A DNA stretch of 64,000 nt, taken from Oceanispirochaeta sp. Lineage in GTDB: Bacteria; Spirochaetota; Spirochaetia; DSM-2461. The stretch lies in contig CAXXXD010000004.1 of the NCBI GenBank assembly GCA_963663385.2, forward strand, positions 640,001 through 704,000, written 5' to 3'. Made by a program: the position numbers and the translations under genes. Below, one piece after another: positions 1,352 through 47,391 of this stretch. The stretch's first letter is position 1; the number at the start of each line of letters is the position of its first letter. The notes under the pieces are model-generated. The model had not been told where the DNA came from and did no database searches. It was given only the letters and a program-made list of their open reading frames with translations.

Positions 1352-2671
1352 ATGAAGCTGAAAAACAAAATACACCTGTCCTCTCTGTATTTCAGAAAGC
1401 ACTTCAGACGCTACCTGTTTCTTATGGCAGCCCTGAGTTTCGGTTTTGCCGTAATTACAGTTATGACCTCTCTTTCCGCCGGGATGACCGGGAGCCTTCA
1501 TGAGGCGGCCCTGAGGCATTACGGGGGAGATCTTGTACTGATCGGGTACAACTTCGAAAGAGGGAAGAAAATGCAGATCCCCCGGGCCGGTGCAGTGGAG
1601 GCCCTTCTGGACCATGCTGTAGAAAAAACGAACCTTGAAGTCCGGAAAACCCTTAAGAGAATCAATTATTTCCGGGACGGCGCCCTCTATTTCAGCGGTC
1701 ATATGGTCAGACAGAAGAATGTCCTGGGGATCGACTGGGAACAGGAGCGGGATTTTCTCAGCGCCATGCATCTGATTCAGGGGAGTGTGGACGAACTGAT
1801 TCAGAGGGACAGTATCCTTATTTCCGAAGCGGTCGCCCGGCAGCTGAATTGCCGTATGGGAGACGACCTGGTACTGAAAGCGGACACCCTGACGGGGCAG
1901 CACAATACGGGAACTTTTATTGTCCGGGGCATCTTTCGGGATACCAGCATTTTCGGGTATTACAAATGCTTTGTCGGCCTGGACCGGATGAATTCCCTTT
2001 TAAATTATGGGGAGGGGGATGTGTCTTCATTCGGTCTGGTGCTTGAAGACCGGGAAATTGAAGAAGAGGAGCTGAATCGCCTTTATACCGCTCTTTCCGG
2101 ATCACTGCCCATGGCTCCTCCCATAACTGCAAAAGAAGACCTGACCTACCAGCTTGATCATGTTTCCTGGTCCGGAATCCGTTATTTTCTGGTTCCCCTT
2201 TCTGTTTATGTTTCCCAGGTGGACGAGCTGTTATTGGCGATGGATCTGCTTTCCTATTTTCTCTATGTCATAATGGCCCTGATCATACTGGTCAGCATCA
2301 GTGTGACATACCGGGTTATCCTGCGGGAAAGAACCCGTGAGATCGGAACCATGCTGTCCATGGGGCTGCACAGGAGGGATGCGGTAGGGATTTTATGCCT
2401 GGAAGCGTTCTGGCTGTTTCTTCTCGCCCTTCTGGCGGGGGCTCTGCTTGCCGCGATCCTGATACAAATTCTGACTCTGCTCTCCTACTCCCGGATTCCC
2501 GGGTTCGAACTATTTCTCAGGAGGGGGCGTTTAGTCCCCTCCTTTTCTTTAAAAACTGCAGCAGGCAATATTTTCCTGCTGTTAGGCATAACCCTGCCGG
2601 CGGTTCTGGTCCCTTCCCTTCGGGTAAGCCGAATGGCGCTGACAAGAGCGTTGGCAGGAGATTTTTCATAA
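1352..2671 (+). CDS. ABC transporter permease, FtsX/LolE family
   Basis: N-terminal TM, large periplasmic loop, ERTREIGTMLSMG motif, C-terminal TMs; GAGGA RBS. Confidence 0.9.
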   Translation: MKLKNKIHLSSLYFRKHFRRYLFLMAALSFGFAVITVMTSLSAGMTGSLHEAALRHYGGDLVLIGYNFERGKKMQIPRAGAVEALLDHAVEKTNLEVRKTLKRINYFRDGALYFSGHMVRQKNVLGIDWEQERDFLSAMHLIQGSVDELIQRDSILISEAVARQLNCRMGDDLVLKADTLTGQHNTGTFIVRGIFRDTSIFGYYKCFVGLDRMNSLLNYGEGDVSSFGLVLEDREIEEEELNRLYTALSGSLPMAPPITAKEDLTYQLDHVSWSGIRYFLVPLSVYVSQVDELLLAMDLLSYFLYVIMALIILVSISVTYRVILRERTREIGTMLSMGLHRRDAVGILCLEAFWLFLLALLAGALLAAILIQILTLLSYSRIPGFELFLRRGRLVPSFSLKTAAGNIFLLLGITLPAVLVPSLRVSRMALTRALAGDFS

Positions 2672-41320: not shown

Positions 41321-42730
41321 TCAGGTCTTTACATACTTATGCAGGATTTTCTTAAGGTCAATAGGACTCACAGGTTTCCCTAAAAAATCATCTATTCCGG
41401 ACTCAAGTATCCTCTTCCTGTCTTCAGCCATGGCCAATGCCGTAAGAGCGATAATAGGAATGGGGCAGGATGTTTTTCCCTCCAGTTTACGTATAGCCCG
41501 GGCTGTATCATAACCATCCATCACAGGCATCTGGATATCCATTAATATTATATCCGGCTTCTCATTGATAAATTTATCCAATCCCTCTTTCCCGTTTTCG
41601 GCCGTGGTTACCTGATAACCGGCTTTTTCCATTGTGCGTACAGCCAATAGCTGGTTTACGCGGTTATCTTCCATCAGAAGAATCAGCGGTCCTTCTGTGT
41701 GGTGATGCTCGAGCTGTTCTTTTTCCAGGTGCTCCGGATGGGCTACCGGTATCAGCTCATTCTGTATCGGTTCCGGAGACGTGAGGGGGAGGAAAAAACG
41801 GAATGTGCTTCCTTCTCCTTCCCTGCTTTTTACATCTATCATTCCGCCCATACTGCTGGTCAGGTGGGCGCAGATAGCCAGTCCCAATCCGGTTCCGCCG
41901 TATTTTCTGGTAGTTGAGTCATCAACCTGTGTAAAGGACCGGAACAGGAGATGCTGCTTGTTGGACGGGATTCCTATTCCCGAATCGGCAATATAGAAAT
42001 AGATCCGGGGATTCCCCTCATTTTTCTCTACACAGGCTGATATCTCTATATACCCTTTTTTCGTAAATTTGAGAGCATTGCTCAGCAGGTTCATGATAAT
42101 CTGTCTGATTCTAACCGGATCCCCCATTATCTTTTCCGGCAGATCCGGAGAGGGGTTATAGCGAAACGCAAGTCCCTTGGCTTTAGCCTGAGGAGAGAAT
42201 ATCCGCACAATATCTTCCATAAAAACGGTTAATTTAAAGGGGATATGTTCTATATTCAGTTTCCCTGCTTCAATCTTGGAGTAATCCAGGATATCGTTGA
42301 TTACACGCATCAGGGAGTCTGCTGAAAGCCTGATAACTTCCAGATACTCCTTCAGGACGGGAGAGGTCTCTTCTTCCAGGGCCAGGTCGGTCATCCCTAC
42401 AATCCCGTTCATGGGAGTTCTGATCTCATGGGTCATGGAGGCCAGGAAGGTCCCGGCTGTGCTCCGGTTTTTCTTCCTTTTCCTTTCCTGGGAGATACGC
42501 CACATAATGGGACCGGCACTGTCAACCGGCGAAATATCCTCCAGATTAAATTCATCCTGCCGGGGAGTCAGGAGAGCATGGATATGACGGTCCCTAAGAT
42601 CGGAATCCTCCATTTTCAGCAGTTCCCGGGCTTTCCTGTTGGCGGCCTGTATCAGCCCCGCGTCGTTGCTTATAATCAGGGCTTCATTCATCGTTTCAAA
42701 AAGCTGCATCATTTCATCGAATCGAATCAA
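41321..42730 (-). CDS. Cytoplasmic hybrid histidine kinase (PAS-like, HisKA, HATPase, receiver)
   Basis: FLASMTHEIRTPMNG, NLLSNALKFT, YGGTGLGL, LMDIQMP; TTG start at 42730 overlaps the upstream stop, GGAGAG RBS. Confidence 0.9.
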   Translation of the reverse strand: MIRFDEMMQLFETMNEALIISNDAGLIQAANRKARELLKMEDSDLRDRHIHALLTPRQDEFNLEDISPVDSAGPIMWRISQERKRKKNRSTAGTFLASMTHEIRTPMNGIVGMTDLALEEETSPVLKEYLEVIRLSADSLMRVINDILDYSKIEAGKLNIEHIPFKLTVFMEDIVRIFSPQAKAKGLAFRYNPSPDLPEKIMGDPVRIRQIIMNLLSNALKFTKKGYIEISACVEKNEGNPRIYFYIADSGIGIPSNKQHLLFRSFTQVDDSTTRKYGGTGLGLAICAHLTSSMGGMIDVKSREGEGSTFRFFLPLTSPEPIQNELIPVAHPEHLEKEQLEHHHTEGPLILLMEDNRVNQLLAVRTMEKAGYQVTTAENGKEGLDKFINEKPDIILMDIQMPVMDGYDTARAIRKLEGKTSCPIPIIALTALAMAEDRKRILESGIDDFLGKPVSPIDLKKILHKYVKT

Positions 42731-44916
42731 AACTCTCCCCCGTTTTTTAAAATATGGTAGGTGAAAAACAGTACTCCCAGAGAGTTGGAACTGTCGGCTT
42801 TTTCTATATCCAGCCTGCGGATGGAGTTCAGTACCGGTATTGCGGCGCCCCTGGCACGGGTCCCGGATAATACCGAGCAGCACCACTCCCACACAAGCTG
42901 ATATTTTCCCCCCGTGAAACTTCTGTACAGCCACTCCTGGTTTTTATAGAAGAGTTCCATCTCTCTGGCTTCATCCAGCAGGATAATCATTCCTTCTCCC
43001 GGTTCATCATTATTTCTCTGAAAAATCCATCCCAGGGGCGGATTCATTCCCAATTGCTGAGAAATAAGGGTTATGTAGTTTTGTACATAGGTTTCACCCA
43101 TGGACAAGGTCTTTTCATCAAAAATGGTTTCCAGCCATTCTCCCTGGGGATGCATATTATGAAAAGCAATCAGGTAGTTTAAATCCCGTTCAATATTTCC
43201 CCGCTGACCTTCTGAAAACCTCTTATATATGGATTCGTAATGGTCCCTGTTTCCTATTCTGCCCAGGGACTTTGCCGCATTGGCCGAGATAAGACAGTCT
43301 TTATCGTCAAGCAGTTTTATCAGAAGCTCTTCCACCTTTTTTTCCGGATAAGCTCCCAGGGCGAAAATCGCCTCCTTTCTGTTGAAGCTGCAGGGCTCCG
43401 AGGCTTCCGTCAGCAGTTCCGGGATAAGCTGGGGCCTTTTCTTTTCAAAAAGGGTTTTAATGATTTCTCCCCTTTCCGGAGAAAGGGGCTGGAGGAATTT
43501 CTGACGTATCTCATCGTTTGCAAGGGAGGATCCGGTATAGCCCAGAGACAGGAGCAGGGACTTCCGCTGCAGAGTTGTATTATAGGTACTGAGCCGGTTA
43601 ATATCCCGGAATGTACGCAAATGGTCAATGGACAGGAGCATCGTCCAGGTTTCTTTTAAGGATGCGCTGCCTTTTTCTTCGAATCGGGCGGCCGTCAGGG
43701 TTATAATCAGGCACAGGATGACTCCCATGGAATAGGTTAGACCGTATGTGTTGAGATACGGCAGAGCCAGTATCTCGGACCAGTCCGCCAGATACCCTCC
43801 CGAGAACCCCAGTCCAAGGGCCACCAGAGAGGTAATAAAGACATCCATTGATGTAAAACTTACAGAATCTTCATCTGGTATAAGCTGGACAAACAGACGG
43901 GAAGCAAGAAGGATCAGCGATGTCTGGAGCATAACCGTAATAAATCCCAGAAAATAAAAAAACTCGGCACTTCGGGATGTATCTGTCAGCATCCATACAA
44001 CCAGTATCCCGCCGGTAGCTACTGCGGTGGGGAGAATGAACGGCCGGCTTCCGAGTCTGTCGGCAAAAGGTTTTATCATCTGAGCACCCATAATGGCGGC
44101 CAGGGTGATTATAATTGTATAAAGGAAGATCATGGGGGAGGAGAAGCCGGCGTATTTTCTCAAGAAGGGGATAGTCATTCCCGTTATAATTTCGATCCCC
44201 ACACTGCACCAGCGGACAATCAATACGCTCCGTTCCAGGGGTTTTCCCATATTTTCAATAAAAAGTTTTCCCACATGCCTGCCTTTGTGATGTTCAATAA
44301 TCTCACGGCAGGGGATTCTTTTCATTGCTCTGGCTGATAATGTATTTGAAAGGACGCCCAGTACCTGGAGGAACAGGATCTCGGTCTGTTCCGATACAAA
44401 CTGCGTGGTGGTTACAAGATAACTGAACACTCTGGAAAAAATAGCTGTCGTATTGAAACGGGTGGAGGCTGTCATAATAACCTCACCTCTGGTCCGGCTG
44501 GTAGAGATCATTTTCTGTATATTCTGCTGAACTGATACTCCGATTGTTCTGGTTATACTGAAAAGGGTATAGATTGTCAGGATGAGGAATACCGCTGATT
44601 GTCCGCTGAAAAAGGTAAGGGCGAGGTAACCGAGACAAAAGAATCCCCGCAATAACCAGGCGATATAACCGACGGTAAGAATGGATTTCCCGTTAAAAAC
44701 CTTTGTATAAAAAAGCAGACTGATACCTGTTATGTAAATGACAGATGAGATATAGCCTAATTGCGTGTTAGTCGCTCCGTACAGGATGGCTAACAGGTAA
44801 ACTGTCGTATTCCCCAGAAAACTGAACCCGATTCCGTTCCAGCCGGCGTATCGGTAATAATATTTTCTTCCGGTTTCTCTTTCGTACTGGGAAAGGTACT
44901 TGGTTTTTTTGATCAT
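42727..44916 (-). CDS. MFS-like transporter fused to a C-terminal HEAT-repeat domain
   Basis: About 12 hydrophobic segments with ADRLGSR; RKEAIFALG, NAAKSLGRIG HEAT-like repeats. Confidence 0.75.
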   Translation of the reverse strand: MIKKTKYLSQYERETGRKYYYRYAGWNGIGFSFLGNTTVYLLAILYGATNTQLGYISSVIYITGISLLFYTKVFNGKSILTVGYIAWLLRGFFCLGYLALTFFSGQSAVFLILTIYTLFSITRTIGVSVQQNIQKMISTSRTRGEVIMTASTRFNTTAIFSRVFSYLVTTTQFVSEQTEILFLQVLGVLSNTLSARAMKRIPCREIIEHHKGRHVGKLFIENMGKPLERSVLIVRWCSVGIEIITGMTIPFLRKYAGFSSPMIFLYTIIITLAAIMGAQMIKPFADRLGSRPFILPTAVATGGILVVWMLTDTSRSAEFFYFLGFITVMLQTSLILLASRLFVQLIPDEDSVSFTSMDVFITSLVALGLGFSGGYLADWSEILALPYLNTYGLTYSMGVILCLIITLTAARFEEKGSASLKETWTMLLSIDHLRTFRDINRLSTYNTTLQRKSLLLSLGYTGSSLANDEIRQKFLQPLSPERGEIIKTLFEKKRPQLIPELLTEASEPCSFNRKEAIFALGAYPEKKVEELLIKLLDDKDCLISANAAKSLGRIGNRDHYESIYKRFSEGQRGNIERDLNYLIAFHNMHPQGEWLETIFDEKTLSMGETYVQNYITLISQQLGMNPPLGWIFQRNNDEPGEGMIILLDEAREMELFYKNQEWLYRSFTGGKYQLVWEWCCSVLSGTRARGAAIPVLNSIRRLDIEKADSSNSLGVLFFTYHILKNGGEF

Positions 44917-45039
44917 ATTTTTTCAATTTCCCGATTCGTGAATAAGGGTTTCTAGAATAATAGGCTTTTGTTCTGTAAGGGTAAAGAAAAAAATTGAAAA
45001 AAAACGTAACCATTCCCGGTCTTTTCAGTTTTACTTTAT

Positions 45040-45136
45040 GTAAGCGTTTCCGAAGAGGGAATGACTTGCTTTTTTCATTTGAATTTCTCCAGTTTTCTGG
45101 CCCCGGTTTTCCTCCTTTTCCGGGGCCTCTTTTTTT
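45040..45136 (+). ncRNA. Candidate sRNA 1 with anti-SD terminator loop
   Basis: GTAACC-16-GTTTTA promoter-like motif at 45006; GGCCCCGG-TTTTCCTCCTTTT-CCGGGGCC hairpin plus T tract; 5' end approximate. Confidence 0.5.
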
Positions 45137-45334
45137 ATGGGTTAACAACAGGGTTAATTCCGGTGTTCCTGCTCAATCTTTTCACAGGCTGCCGCGTCGA
45201 AGGAATACTCATTTAACACATAATAATTCCGATCTCAACCTGTTGTTATAATCGGGTGAATAAAGGGGCGGAAAAACTTTTCAAAAAAATGTTTTTTTTT
45301 GTAACCCTCTCTATGGGGTGATGTTTAATGAGTA

Positions 45335-45422
45335 TAAATGGCAAAGATTTTCTTTTTGGGTTTGTAGTTTCATTTTTTTTCTTCGCCCCCGGGTTTCCTC
45401 CTTTTCCCGGGGGCTTTTTTTT
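45335..45422 (+). ncRNA. Candidate sRNA 2 with anti-SD terminator loop
   Basis: GTAACC-16-GTTTAA at 45301; GCCCCCGGG-TTTCCTCCTTTT-CCCGGGGGC hairpin plus T8; 5' end approximate. Confidence 0.5.
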
Positions 45423-45426
45423 CGGA

Positions 45427-47391
45427 TCAATCCGCGGCGGAAAAGAAATTCTGAAACTCGTCGTCCGCCTGACGGATAAACTGTTTGAGCTCTTCATCGC
45501 TGCAGTTTGCCATCTTTTCAAATGTACAGCTGATATCGATGTCTATATCTTCCGAGTGCCTGACATAGGTCGTCTGGTAGAGAGCCAGCTTTTTATCTTT
45601 GTGAATCCCGATCTCAAGGAGTTTGCGGGCGCCCTGACGGATCAGTTTCAGTTTTTCCATCAGGTCCTCCCGGGACTCAATGCTCCAGACTCCCAGGAAA
45701 ATAGCCTGGGAATCATTATTCATATCCCCTATGAATTCTCCTCTCAGGAGTCTGTTCTTTTCTTTTCCCAGGTAGGGGGCAAAATCAAGGTGTTCCGCCA
45801 GCTTCCGGTCTGTCGCCAGGAAATTCCCCGTTTCCGGGTCCATGGTGAATATAATAACGTTCTCAAAGGCCTGTCCGTAGCTTTTAAAAAGCGCTCCCCG
45901 GAAATCATTGATATCTATGGCGGAAAAGAGCCGTTCCTGTCTTCTGTGTATGGCTCCGGATATTTCTATCAGCCATTCCTTCATGGTCTCATACTCGCAG
46001 CTGTACTCAGAAACCTCTTCTTCCAGGGCTTCTGCACTGATCCGGTTCTGAAGATAGGAGAGCACTGTTCGGAAGATTGTTCTGATATTGTGGAATTTGC
46101 TGAATTTAAGAATCAGATCAAAAAGGAATATTTCCATTTTGCGGAGTTGCCAGATCGAGGCGATATATTCGGTTCGATCGGGATTGTCACTTCTGGCCGG
46201 TTCTTCCCACAGCTGTTTGAATTCATTCAGCCTTCGATCCATCTGAATGTACCATCTGTCCAGGGTCCCCGCGACCTTTTCCATCCGGATATGCCATTCC
46301 GTGCCCTCCCCCTCAATACTCTCCACATGGATGTTCTCCGGTCCGAAGGTGGAATAGATCTGTCTGGTTCCCAGTCCTTCTCCGCTTTTTTTACCCTTTG
46401 TCGTTACCCCGACAAACGCGGGAATACCCTCTTCGGTCAGCTTCATCTTCTCCGCCGGGATACCCGCTCCATTATCCTTCAAGAGGAGGTGAACCGTATC
46501 TTCCTTCCTGGTAATGGATATTTCTATAATGCCCCGGCGCCCTGTCTCTCTGATGGACTCCAGGGAGTTGGATACCATATTAATCAGGGCTCTGCCGATG
46601 TTTACATAAAAACCGGGAACCATGGGCATCCGGGAACTCAGTTTAAGGTAGAGTTCACAGGGAATGGTGGAGGCTTCCACGTACGGGACAATCCGGTCCA
46701 GAATAACCTCCTGCAGGTTGACTTTATGCACTATCTGCATGGTATCCCGGAAGGAGTTGAGCATGTTGATCAGCGTTGTGGTTTCCCTGTTAATATCTTC
46801 GATTATCCGGTCTCCGTTATCCACGGAAAGCATATCTACCATGCTGGAAAGCAGACGGAGGGTTTTTCTGGCATCATGACGGGTCTTTCCGATTTCCTCA
46901 TCGGTCTGGGCATAGTCTTTCCTGTCCGGCATGGAGTAGGACAGGATCTGCTCTTTTGCTGCAATTAAATTATTGTATATAAGATTCCGGTATACGATAG
47001 GATCCCTCGATTCAAACCCTTTTTTATGAAAGAACTCAATCGTATCGATCTGTTTCTCCCAGATATAGAGGTAAACCCTGGATTTCTTCGGGATACTCCA
47101 GGCAAGGTTCTCAATAAAATGCGAACCGATCCCCTTGCCTCGTCCAAAGGGACTGGTAACAATTTTGTAGATCAGAAAATTCTTCTTTTCCTTATCCGAG
47201 TAGACAAGCATATAACCAAGAATTTCACCTTCGTCTATCCAGACTGAGCTGAATTCCCTGTCTTTTGTAATTTCCGGATCCTTGATATAGGGGGAGGGGA
47301 TGATAAAGGTATCGATATTCAGAAGAGGATTCCTGAGGACCTGATCTTCAATCTCCTGAGTCAGCGGTCTGATATGATTGTGCCCTTCCAT
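45427..47391 (-). CDS. GNAT acetyltransferase-histidine kinase fusion with uncharacterised C-terminal region
   Basis: SPFGRGKGIG and FFHKKGF GNAT motifs; RHDARK H-box-like; NMVSNS, DNGAGI, GEGLG; start 47391 (TAATG overlap). Confidence 0.8.
   Translation of the reverse strand: MEGHNHIRPLTQEIEDQVLRNPLLNIDTFIIPSPYIKDPEITKDREFSSVWIDEGEILGYMLVYSDKEKKNFLIYKIVTSPFGRGKGIGSHFIENLAWSIPKKSRVYLYIWEKQIDTIEFFHKKGFESRDPIVYRNLIYNNLIAAKEQILSYSMPDRKDYAQTDEEIGKTRHDARKTLRLLSSMVDMLSVDNGDRIIEDINRETTTLINMLNSFRDTMQIVHKVNLQEVILDRIVPYVEASTIPCELYLKLSSRMPMVPGFYVNIGRALINMVSNSLESIRETGRRGIIEISITRKEDTVHLLLKDNGAGIPAEKMKLTEEGIPAFVGVTTKGKKSGEGLGTRQIYSTFGPENIHVESIEGEGTEWHIRMEKVAGTLDRWYIQMDRRLNEFKQLWEEPARSDNPDRTEYIASIWQLRKMEIFLFDLILKFSKFHNIRTIFRTVLSYLQNRISAEALEEEVSEYSCEYETMKEWLIEISGAIHRRQERLFSAIDINDFRGALFKSYGQAFENVIIFTMDPETGNFLATDRKLAEHLDFAPYLGKEKNRLLRGEFIGDMNNDSQAIFLGVWSIESREDLMEKLKLIRQGARKLLEIGIHKDKKLALYQTTYVRHSEDIDIDISCTFEKMANCSDEELKQFIRQADDEFQNFFSAAD

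Follow-up and report, generated by a model that had tools for sequence, protein, structure and literature searches.

MicA and RybB are sigma-E sRNAs of enterobacteria. Non-coding arms of the sigma-E type have been described in proteobacteria and in Fusobacterium; FoxI, from Fusobacterium nucleatum, acts in a host lacking Hfq (PMC9546586). The LhrC1-5 RNAs of Listeria monocytogenes are multicopy RNAs of about 100 nt with a 5' hairpin, an open linker and a terminator. Their CU sites in loop and linker have been shown to bind the Shine-Dalgarno (SD) sequence; they are induced by envelope stress, are controlled by the two-component system LisRK and do not need Hfq (PMC4132741). The Cuckoo / RSs0680 (CcsR) RNAs have a fixed anti-SD loop, variable covarying stems and sibling copies; CCUCCUCCC is present in 2-4 adjacent hairpin loops, and the available text of PMC4615179 confines them to alphaproteobacteria. 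Spirochete ECF groups include ECF208 and ECF229 (PMC7826278), and the regulon of Treponema pallidum TP0092 (RpoE, sigma-24) is cited in PMC4368718 and PMC4222731. In the literature search no sigma-E-type non-coding arm was found in spirochetes. The family reported here is not described in the literature searched, including the available text of PMC7826278, PMC8551640, PMC8632094, PMC4368718 and PMC4222731; the supplements of transcriptome and RNA-motif papers may list these RNAs.

The window is the whole stretch of 64,000 nt analysed, positions 640001-704000 of contig C4 of a 5.3-Mb genome (G000; other G-numbers denote the genomes compared with it). Its intergenic gap 44917-45426 (510 bp) is flanked by two minus-strand ORFs and holds two parallel plus-strand units, as the first-pass annotation had reported. 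Each unit comprises a GTAAC-N17-GTT promoter, an RNA of about 90 nt and a terminator with a CCUCC loop.

42727..44916, minus strand: divergent left neighbour; membrane protein of 729 aa, HEAT repeats
44985-44957, minus strand: the left neighbour's own sigma-70-like promoter
45006..45030, plus strand: unit 1 ECF-type promoter (-35 GTAAC 45006-45010, 17 nt, -10 GTT 45028-45030)
45040..45136, plus strand: candidate sRNA 1 with 5' hairpin (45040-45069), open linker and terminator; ~97 nt, start inferred from the distance to the promoter
45068..45090, plus strand: unit 1 seed; anti-AUG-AAA-AAA then anti-SD (UUUCUCC), co-linear with an SD-spacer-start site
45099..45136, plus strand: unit 1 intrinsic terminator; hairpin 45099-45127 with 8-bp GC stem and 13-nt anti-SD loop UUUUCCUCCUUUU (45107-45119), U-tract 45128-45136
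45301..45325, plus strand: unit 2 ECF-type promoter (GTAAC 45301-45305, 17 nt, GTT 45323-45325)
45335..45422, plus strand: candidate sRNA 2, ~88 nt, start inferred
45364..45384, plus strand: unit 2 linker seed; anti-AUG-AAA plus UUCUUC
45385..45422, plus strand: unit 2 intrinsic terminator; hairpin 45385-45414 with 9-bp GC stem and 12-nt loop UUUCCUCCUUUU (45394-45405), U-tract 45415-45422
45427..47391, minus strand: right neighbour, convergent; kinase-like GNAT + HATPase_c protein

Comparison with described RNA families

Rfam gives no gathering-level match for either unit or for 14 homologous loci. The only repeated signal is LhrC (RF00616) with 25.4 and 22.8 bits, the best of the 14 further loci reaching 31.3 against a gathering score of 110. 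The likeness to LhrC lies in the multicopy, three-part layout and in the CU-rich anti-SD sites of linker and terminator loop (PMC4132741); two or more CTCC are present in 57 of 68 hits of the present family, a set that includes training sequences and near-duplicates. The differences are the phylum, the ECF-type motif instead of LisRK control, and CCUCC instead of UCCC; an anti-start-codon seed of LhrC is not described in the available text of PMC4132741. Membership in LhrC was rejected in view of the scores far from 110 bits, the spirochete hosts and the ECF-type upstream motif. The units resemble Cuckoo/CcsR in the fixed anti-SD loop on covarying stems and in their sibling copies. They have, on the other hand, one terminator loop with CCUCCUUUU plus a linker site, and membership was rejected on this single loop and the spirochete hosts.

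With MicA, RybB and FoxI the units share a promoter motif that is common to an ECF sigma gene and to envelope foldase and protease genes. They may also share the repression of envelope protein synthesis, here predicted only. The -10 element is GTT, not GTCWAA, and recognition is apparently of the generic SD and start codon, not by a gene-specific seed. Homology to these families was dropped, as no Rfam gathering-level match to them exists. Enterobacterial-type sigma-E sRNAs use the Hfq chaperone, whereas neither Hfq nor ProQ was found in G000 (98% complete); two Jag_N domains (Jag/KhpB-type) and CsrA are encoded. Membership in two further classes was rejected: type I toxin-antitoxin systems, as no conserved small hydrophobic ORF lies opposite the RNA, and CsrB/RsmZ sponges, as GGA is on the minus strand with one loop per unit and neither promoter nor U-tract.

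Architecture of the two units

The sequence agrees with the pattern GTAACC-N16-GTTTWA annotated at 45006 and 45301. This pattern occurs five times in the 5.3-Mb genome (both strands), two of them in the gap; the 14-nt loop motif TTTCCTCCTTTTCC occurs three times, again with two in the gap. TTTCATTT is present in both units, and an A-tract lies upstream of the unit 1 promoter. The plus strand folds into 5' hairpin, open linker and terminator with z-scores of -3.58 (unit 1) and -2.51 (unit 2), and the GC hairpin with U-tract that was reported to end each unit is confirmed in sequence and fold. The stems had been described as different around a shared loop. The loop is conserved, but the stems are 83% alike over 36 nt and thus not unrelated.

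Only the plus strand, on which no gene ends, carries U-tracts; the minus strand of the unit 2 hairpin has none. The plus strand of the gap contains no gene that the terminators could serve. Since a separate sigma-70-like promoter serves the left gene, neither unit is part of its leader. Across the genus, candidate sRNA 2 is the copy that stays with the kinase-like neighbour, at the 3' end of that gene.

As annotated, an idealised SD-spacer-ATG-AAA-AAA start has its reverse complement in 45068-45090, but an exact match is present at none of the starts in the genome. Through G-U wobble, the UUCUUC of unit 2 may pair with GGAGGA. The spacer separating the two units contains a perfect 10-nt inverted repeat (window 45143-45152 and 45239-45248, 86 nt apart). 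It is absent from the G010 spacer and is perhaps an insertion remnant.

Conservation and structure of the family

Promoter-plus-terminator units are present upstream of the left-gene orthologue in seven of nine other genus genomes with a syntenic locus (G001, G002, G003, G007, G008, G009 and G010); no unit was found at this locus in G005 and G006. Orthologues of unit 1 in G003, G007 and G010 keep the promoter. All three retain the GAAUUUCUCC part of the seed, and the CAU part is kept only in G010. The unit 2 promoter is conserved in its orthologues, and the complete unit 2 cassette is inverted in G007. Conservation of loop and promoter in relatives had been named in advance as a test, and both are conserved. 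The promoter is kept as TGT(A/T)AC(C/T)-N16-GTT; the TWA tail of the annotated element is not.

An exact pattern scan of the genome collection returned nine matching stretches, all from spirochetes. A covariance model built from 12 sequences with the promoter included (R1) matches 80 of 141 sampled genomes of the class (E ≤ 0.01). A second model built from 47 sequences (R2) matches 27 of 46 selected genomes (for the most part genomes missed before and relatives not yet sampled), 52 of 101 genomes of the family of G058 and 21 of 141 genomes of a phylum sample. The E-values of the models are rough. Each of the 11 genus genomes has three to six matches. Thus, the two units, annotated as a local sRNA pair, are real but are part of a class-wide family with further copies in the same genome. 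The family of G058 is probably Treponemataceae, because the copy in G058 has a TD-1 RNA nearby and is divergent from an OmpA-family gene; the promoter is present at 22 of 23 inspected loci of this family (30 retrieved). The neighbours of the copies vary across the class, many lying between pfk and a convergent pgi and others among unrelated genes. Four small genomes other than G180 have no match at E < 0.3.

The terminator stem covaries around a fixed loop sequence. In alignments fitted to the model, eight of nine pairs have two-sided changes among 47 aligned hits, and among 21 hits outside R1 building this holds for 9/9 pairs with 98.4% of cells paired; none of 500 shuffles is as high and slid controls are lower. 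The covariance alignment with related genomes, which the first-pass annotation had proposed as a check, therefore supports it. The promoter is at a fixed distance in 63/68 hits, a count that is partly circular as the model contains the promoter. CTCCT is present at the 3' end in 67/68 hits, and the loop CUCC is the only near-universal element.

Among 69 distinct promoter-bearing RNAs, the loop CUCC is predicted to be open in 64 of 66, the linker CUCC in 39 of 58 and UUCAU in only 22 of 40. The sequence ACCUCCUUU, identical to the 16S 3' end of G000, is found in 35 of the 69. A common class linker, UUUUUCAU-(C/U)G-ACCUCCUUUU, corresponds to an anti-start codon adjoining an anti-SD. Support for the 5' hairpin is weak (median z -0.64). 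Taken as a whole, the RNA family is real, conserved and apparently undescribed.

Promoter and ECF sigma factor

In G000, GTAAC-N17-GTT lies upstream of an ECF sigma gene (C2:1239347-1239868) that is followed by a zf-HC2 gene.

L048:310-1434 (G000:C2:1239312-1240433): locus cysS - ECF sigma - zinc-finger anti-sigma, with class-wide promoter conservation

The motif also precedes htrA and the genes of a cyclophilin-FKBP protein, a MoxR ATPase and a DUF4912 protein. The ECF-type assignment of the promoter is thereby supported, the motif being common to the conserved ECF sigma gene, htrA and a periplasmic-type PPIase gene. One close orthologue of the ECF sigma is present in 54 of 61 class genomes. 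In 27 of the 30 best-scoring loci (G000 included) the motif is located 26-38 nt before the aligned ECF start. Two more have an 18-nt spacer, which gives 29/30, and four further treponemal-type ECF loci also carry the motif. A promoter motif before its own gene is the usual sign of an autoregulated ECF. The motif precedes htrA in 10/10 genus loci and was found at 0/20 htrA loci beyond the genus. RNA hits occur in 47 of the 54 class genomes with the ECF sigma versus none of the seven without; these seven are small genomes from four families, kin are not independent, and the model that gave the hits contains the promoter.

The promoter evidence is positional, because intergenic DNA as a whole shows no enrichment of the bare motif: at N17 G000 has 14 intergenic sites, and other spacings give 7-26. 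With a matrix made from the family promoters, the unit 2 promoter, itself in the matrix, is top-scoring in the genome. The scan of G000 yields 23 sites above 14 bits (11 intergenic) and misses the ECF and htrA sites. The end of a repeated element at nine places in G000 (e.g. C1:363140, C2:1103706 and C3:59716) carries GTAACC-N17-GTTT and an anti-SD-like tail. The element is probably an insertion sequence, and since it carries the motif, motif counts at this spacing are inflated. At G000:C3:988642-988668 two overlapping motifs on opposite strands lie between divergent genes of a folD-type and an exported-looking protein. A leaderless ECF mRNA immune to the RNA was considered and dropped, as the ECF start lies 22 nt after GTT in G000.

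G180 (1.1 Mb) has a single, 45%-identical ECF orthologue after cysS near 101.6 kb with the same promoter, which by gene order we take to be TP0092. The ECF sigma described here is likely the orthologue of Treponema pallidum TP0092/RpoE. The TP0092 system would then share the promoter, and the RNA family was not found in G180 at E up to 5; inspection by eye of 12 promoter-pattern sites in this genome revealed no obvious RNA unit. One G180 motif (L253, C1:156731-156756, minus strand) lies 21 nt before a 376-aa lipoprotein-like ORF, a candidate regulon member.

Sibling RNAs

Further members of the family in G000 and in the genus fall into several types.

G000:C4 ~1117213-1117350 (L006:1440-1620), minus strand: third ECF-promoter sRNA candidate, RNA ~1117316-1117213
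G000:C4:820440-820670 (L004): longer sibling, ~180 nt; sigma-70-like promoter, two CCUCC loops, conserved central GUUGUUAAC
L305, L306, L307, L311, L315, L318, L319, L321 (eight genus genomes): short ECF-promoter sibling, ~65 nt, starting AACCGUUU
G000:C4:418242-418316 (L002) and 433101-433143 (L003): near-identical anti-SD terminator copies

Each of the 10 other genus genomes has a match to the third RNA, and all 10 copies that could be extracted, G000 included, carry the promoter. Its anti-AUG-AAA-AAA plus anti-SD seed is near-invariant and its 5' part drifts; the terminator differs from those of the two units and is conserved in sequence. Inspection of 19 further genus matches gave eight short ECF-promoter siblings, ten of sigma-70 type and one after a gene end. 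The ten are longer two-loop RNAs behind sigma-70-like promoters, and the ~180-nt sibling has counterparts in all 10 other genus genomes. The short sibling was not seen among the matches of G000. A dehydrogenase E1-type gene and a sulfatase gene end 50-60 nt before these two terminator copies (L002 and L003), which are possibly 3'-UTR-derived RNAs or recent copies.

In a sister-class family (f54, L237-L246; matches in 9 of 12 genomes) the same loop-terminator is found mostly behind AT-rich sigma-70-like promoters, and the ECF promoter is mostly absent. A close ECF sigma orthologue was found in none of three tested f54 genomes. Because sigma-70-type siblings and this sister-class family carry the anti-SD terminator module, it is wider than ECF control. 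Two elements from another genus (L019 and L020, ~1390-1486, minus strand, two genomes) have the promoter with a CCUCC hairpin close behind it and a separate terminator further on. Both are upstream of the same membrane-protein gene and were scored by neither model.

Predicted targets

Targets were ranked by duplex energy on our own heuristic gene calls (4469 genes in G000). The label exported-like, given to 714 of 4321 proteins, rests on an own heuristic hydrophobicity rule that ignores residues 1-3. Of 313 proteins with MKK starts, 170 are exported-like. Among genes with GGAG and ATGAAAAA the fraction is 100/145, versus 333/1916 for other GGAG genes and also versus 14.7%. The seed would reach a subset of exported-like genes, because only 133/714 start with ATGAAAAA.

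For the unit 1 linker, 65 of the top 200 sites belong to exported-like genes. Shuffling this linker 21 times gives 34 ± 6 with a maximum of 45, so that no shuffle is as high. Enrichment of secreted proteins among predicted targets, which had been suggested as a check, is accordingly seen with unit 1. Enrichment is weak for the unit 2 linker (47 of the top 200) and for the loop alone (49 of the top 200). Hence, the seed directed at MKK-type starts, which had been proposed for the pair, is strong in unit 1, where the seed complement marks exported-type proteins, but weak in unit 2.

The top unit 1 sites in G000 include Skp/OmpH (rank 3), solute-binding proteins and an outer-membrane efflux protein; C1:57902-58273, C3:1086998-1087519 and C3:590813-591802 are among the top loci. 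Skp/OmpH as a conserved target was dropped: 1 of 24 linker-site pairs from 19 genomes is in the top 1%, in a flawed, weak test in which linker extraction failed in five pairs and clipped the anti-SD in several others. In the same weak test no single conserved target was found. The loop would hit regulon members too, because the anti-sigma gene ranks 30th and the foldase 147th of 4321 in the loop-alone ranking.

Proposed mechanism and alternative explanations

Judged from the sequence comparisons, the units are probably Hfq-independent, ECF-driven, translation-blocking sibling trans-acting sRNAs, with a probability of roughly 0.7. The preference for exported proteins is the less certain half of this mechanism. 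The comparisons establish the anatomy, conservation and covariation of the units, their shared promoter motif and the statistical bias of the seed complement, and in each part open to such comparison the outcome was the one predicted by the first-pass annotation. The two sRNAs would be part of a non-coding, repressing arm of the ECF sigma encoded after cysS and before the zinc-finger anti-sigma gene. Stress would free the sigma factor from its anti-sigma. As the shared motif suggests, it would then transcribe itself, htrA, the cyclophilin-FKBP foldase and the ~90-nt RNAs. In each RNA an open terminator loop is predicted to present CUCC, and the linker a further anti-SD adjoining UUUCAU. By complementarity and by analogy to LhrC, the open loop or the linker would dock on the mRNA SD and extend over AUG-AAA-AAA. 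Blocked 30S loading would reduce synthesis, preferentially of exported proteins with MKK signal-peptide starts.

A bolder form of this reading is tentative. The class-wide family might recognise the mRNAs of exported proteins collectively, and not individually, through mimicry of the initiation complex, with a copy of the 16S 3' tail (ACCUCCUUU) beside CAU and U-runs that read AUG-AAA-AAA, the typical start of signal peptides. The ECF sigma could then throttle envelope traffic with a single generic seed and no need of Hfq. In the genus, the family might have multiplied into several ECF-driven and sigma-70-driven siblings.

It is unlikely that the RNAs, though ECF-driven, act as dampers or decoys against SD sequences in general and do not truly favour mRNAs of exported proteins, the CAU-U-rich linker being a by-product or directed at other targets (e.g. 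transport, metabolism). Such a role fits the loop CUCC as sole near-universal element (67/68), the existence of sigma-70-type siblings and the result that no single conserved target was found. The CAU seed is missing in 26/68 hits, two unit 1 orthologues among them, and Treponema-like copies and the short genus siblings are without it. However, TTCAT is kept in 42/68 hits and TTTTTCAT in 31/68 across families, the third ECF-promoter RNA keeps its anti-SD and anti-AUG-AAA-AAA seed despite the drift of its 5' part, and the shuffle control of unit 1 (0/21 as high) argues for a real preference. We give little credence to the RNAs acting as protein-binding sponges (e.g. for a CU-reading protein or KhpA/B) and not on mRNA. 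Repeated loop motifs in multicopy RNAs do resemble a sponge design, which is discussed for LhrC (PMC4132741), and Jag/KhpB-type domains are encoded in G000. The motifs, though, complement SD and start codon in the order needed for antiparallel pairing, and the CsrA that is present reads GGA, which is on the strand without promoter or U-tract.

On another view the hairpins are plain terminators with a favoured loop, and the promoter motifs are vestigial or due to chance. In its favour, two copies in G000 and one in G007 lie just after gene ends with no clear promoter, and many class copies face the convergent pgi gene. Yet the plus strand of the gap offers nothing to terminate, the minus strand lacks a U-tract, the fixed loop sits on a covarying stem with the promoter at a fixed distance (63/68 hits), and the cassette is inverted as a whole in G007; this view is very improbable. 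Hardly any weight is left for minus-strand small peptides with antisense RNAs, a type I toxin-antitoxin-like arrangement that the first-pass annotation gave as its alternative. Both peptides exist as ORFs, and a well-spaced SD and ATG is present on the minus strand in unit 1 and in the third sibling, but the ORFs are not conserved in relatives. Among 42 cases they range from 3 to >100 codons and have no sequence in common outside the seed. The unit 1 peptide has 15 aa in this genome and 4 aa in G010, and there is no ATG for it in G003 or G007; the third sibling gives 4-31 aa, and the SD-ATG spacing is 4 nt in most class members. At the level of sequence, the conserved feature is the complement of a start site and not a coding frame.

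Implications

The analysis provides a concrete promoter consensus for a conserved spirochete ECF sigma, which makes its regulon directly testable; a reconstituted spirochete transcription system exists (bioRxiv 10.64898/2026.02.09.704077). If the proposed mechanism is true, the logic of the sigma-E non-coding arm would have originated independently in a deep phylum. It would also suggest a simple rule, by which exported-protein mRNAs are picked by their start codons.
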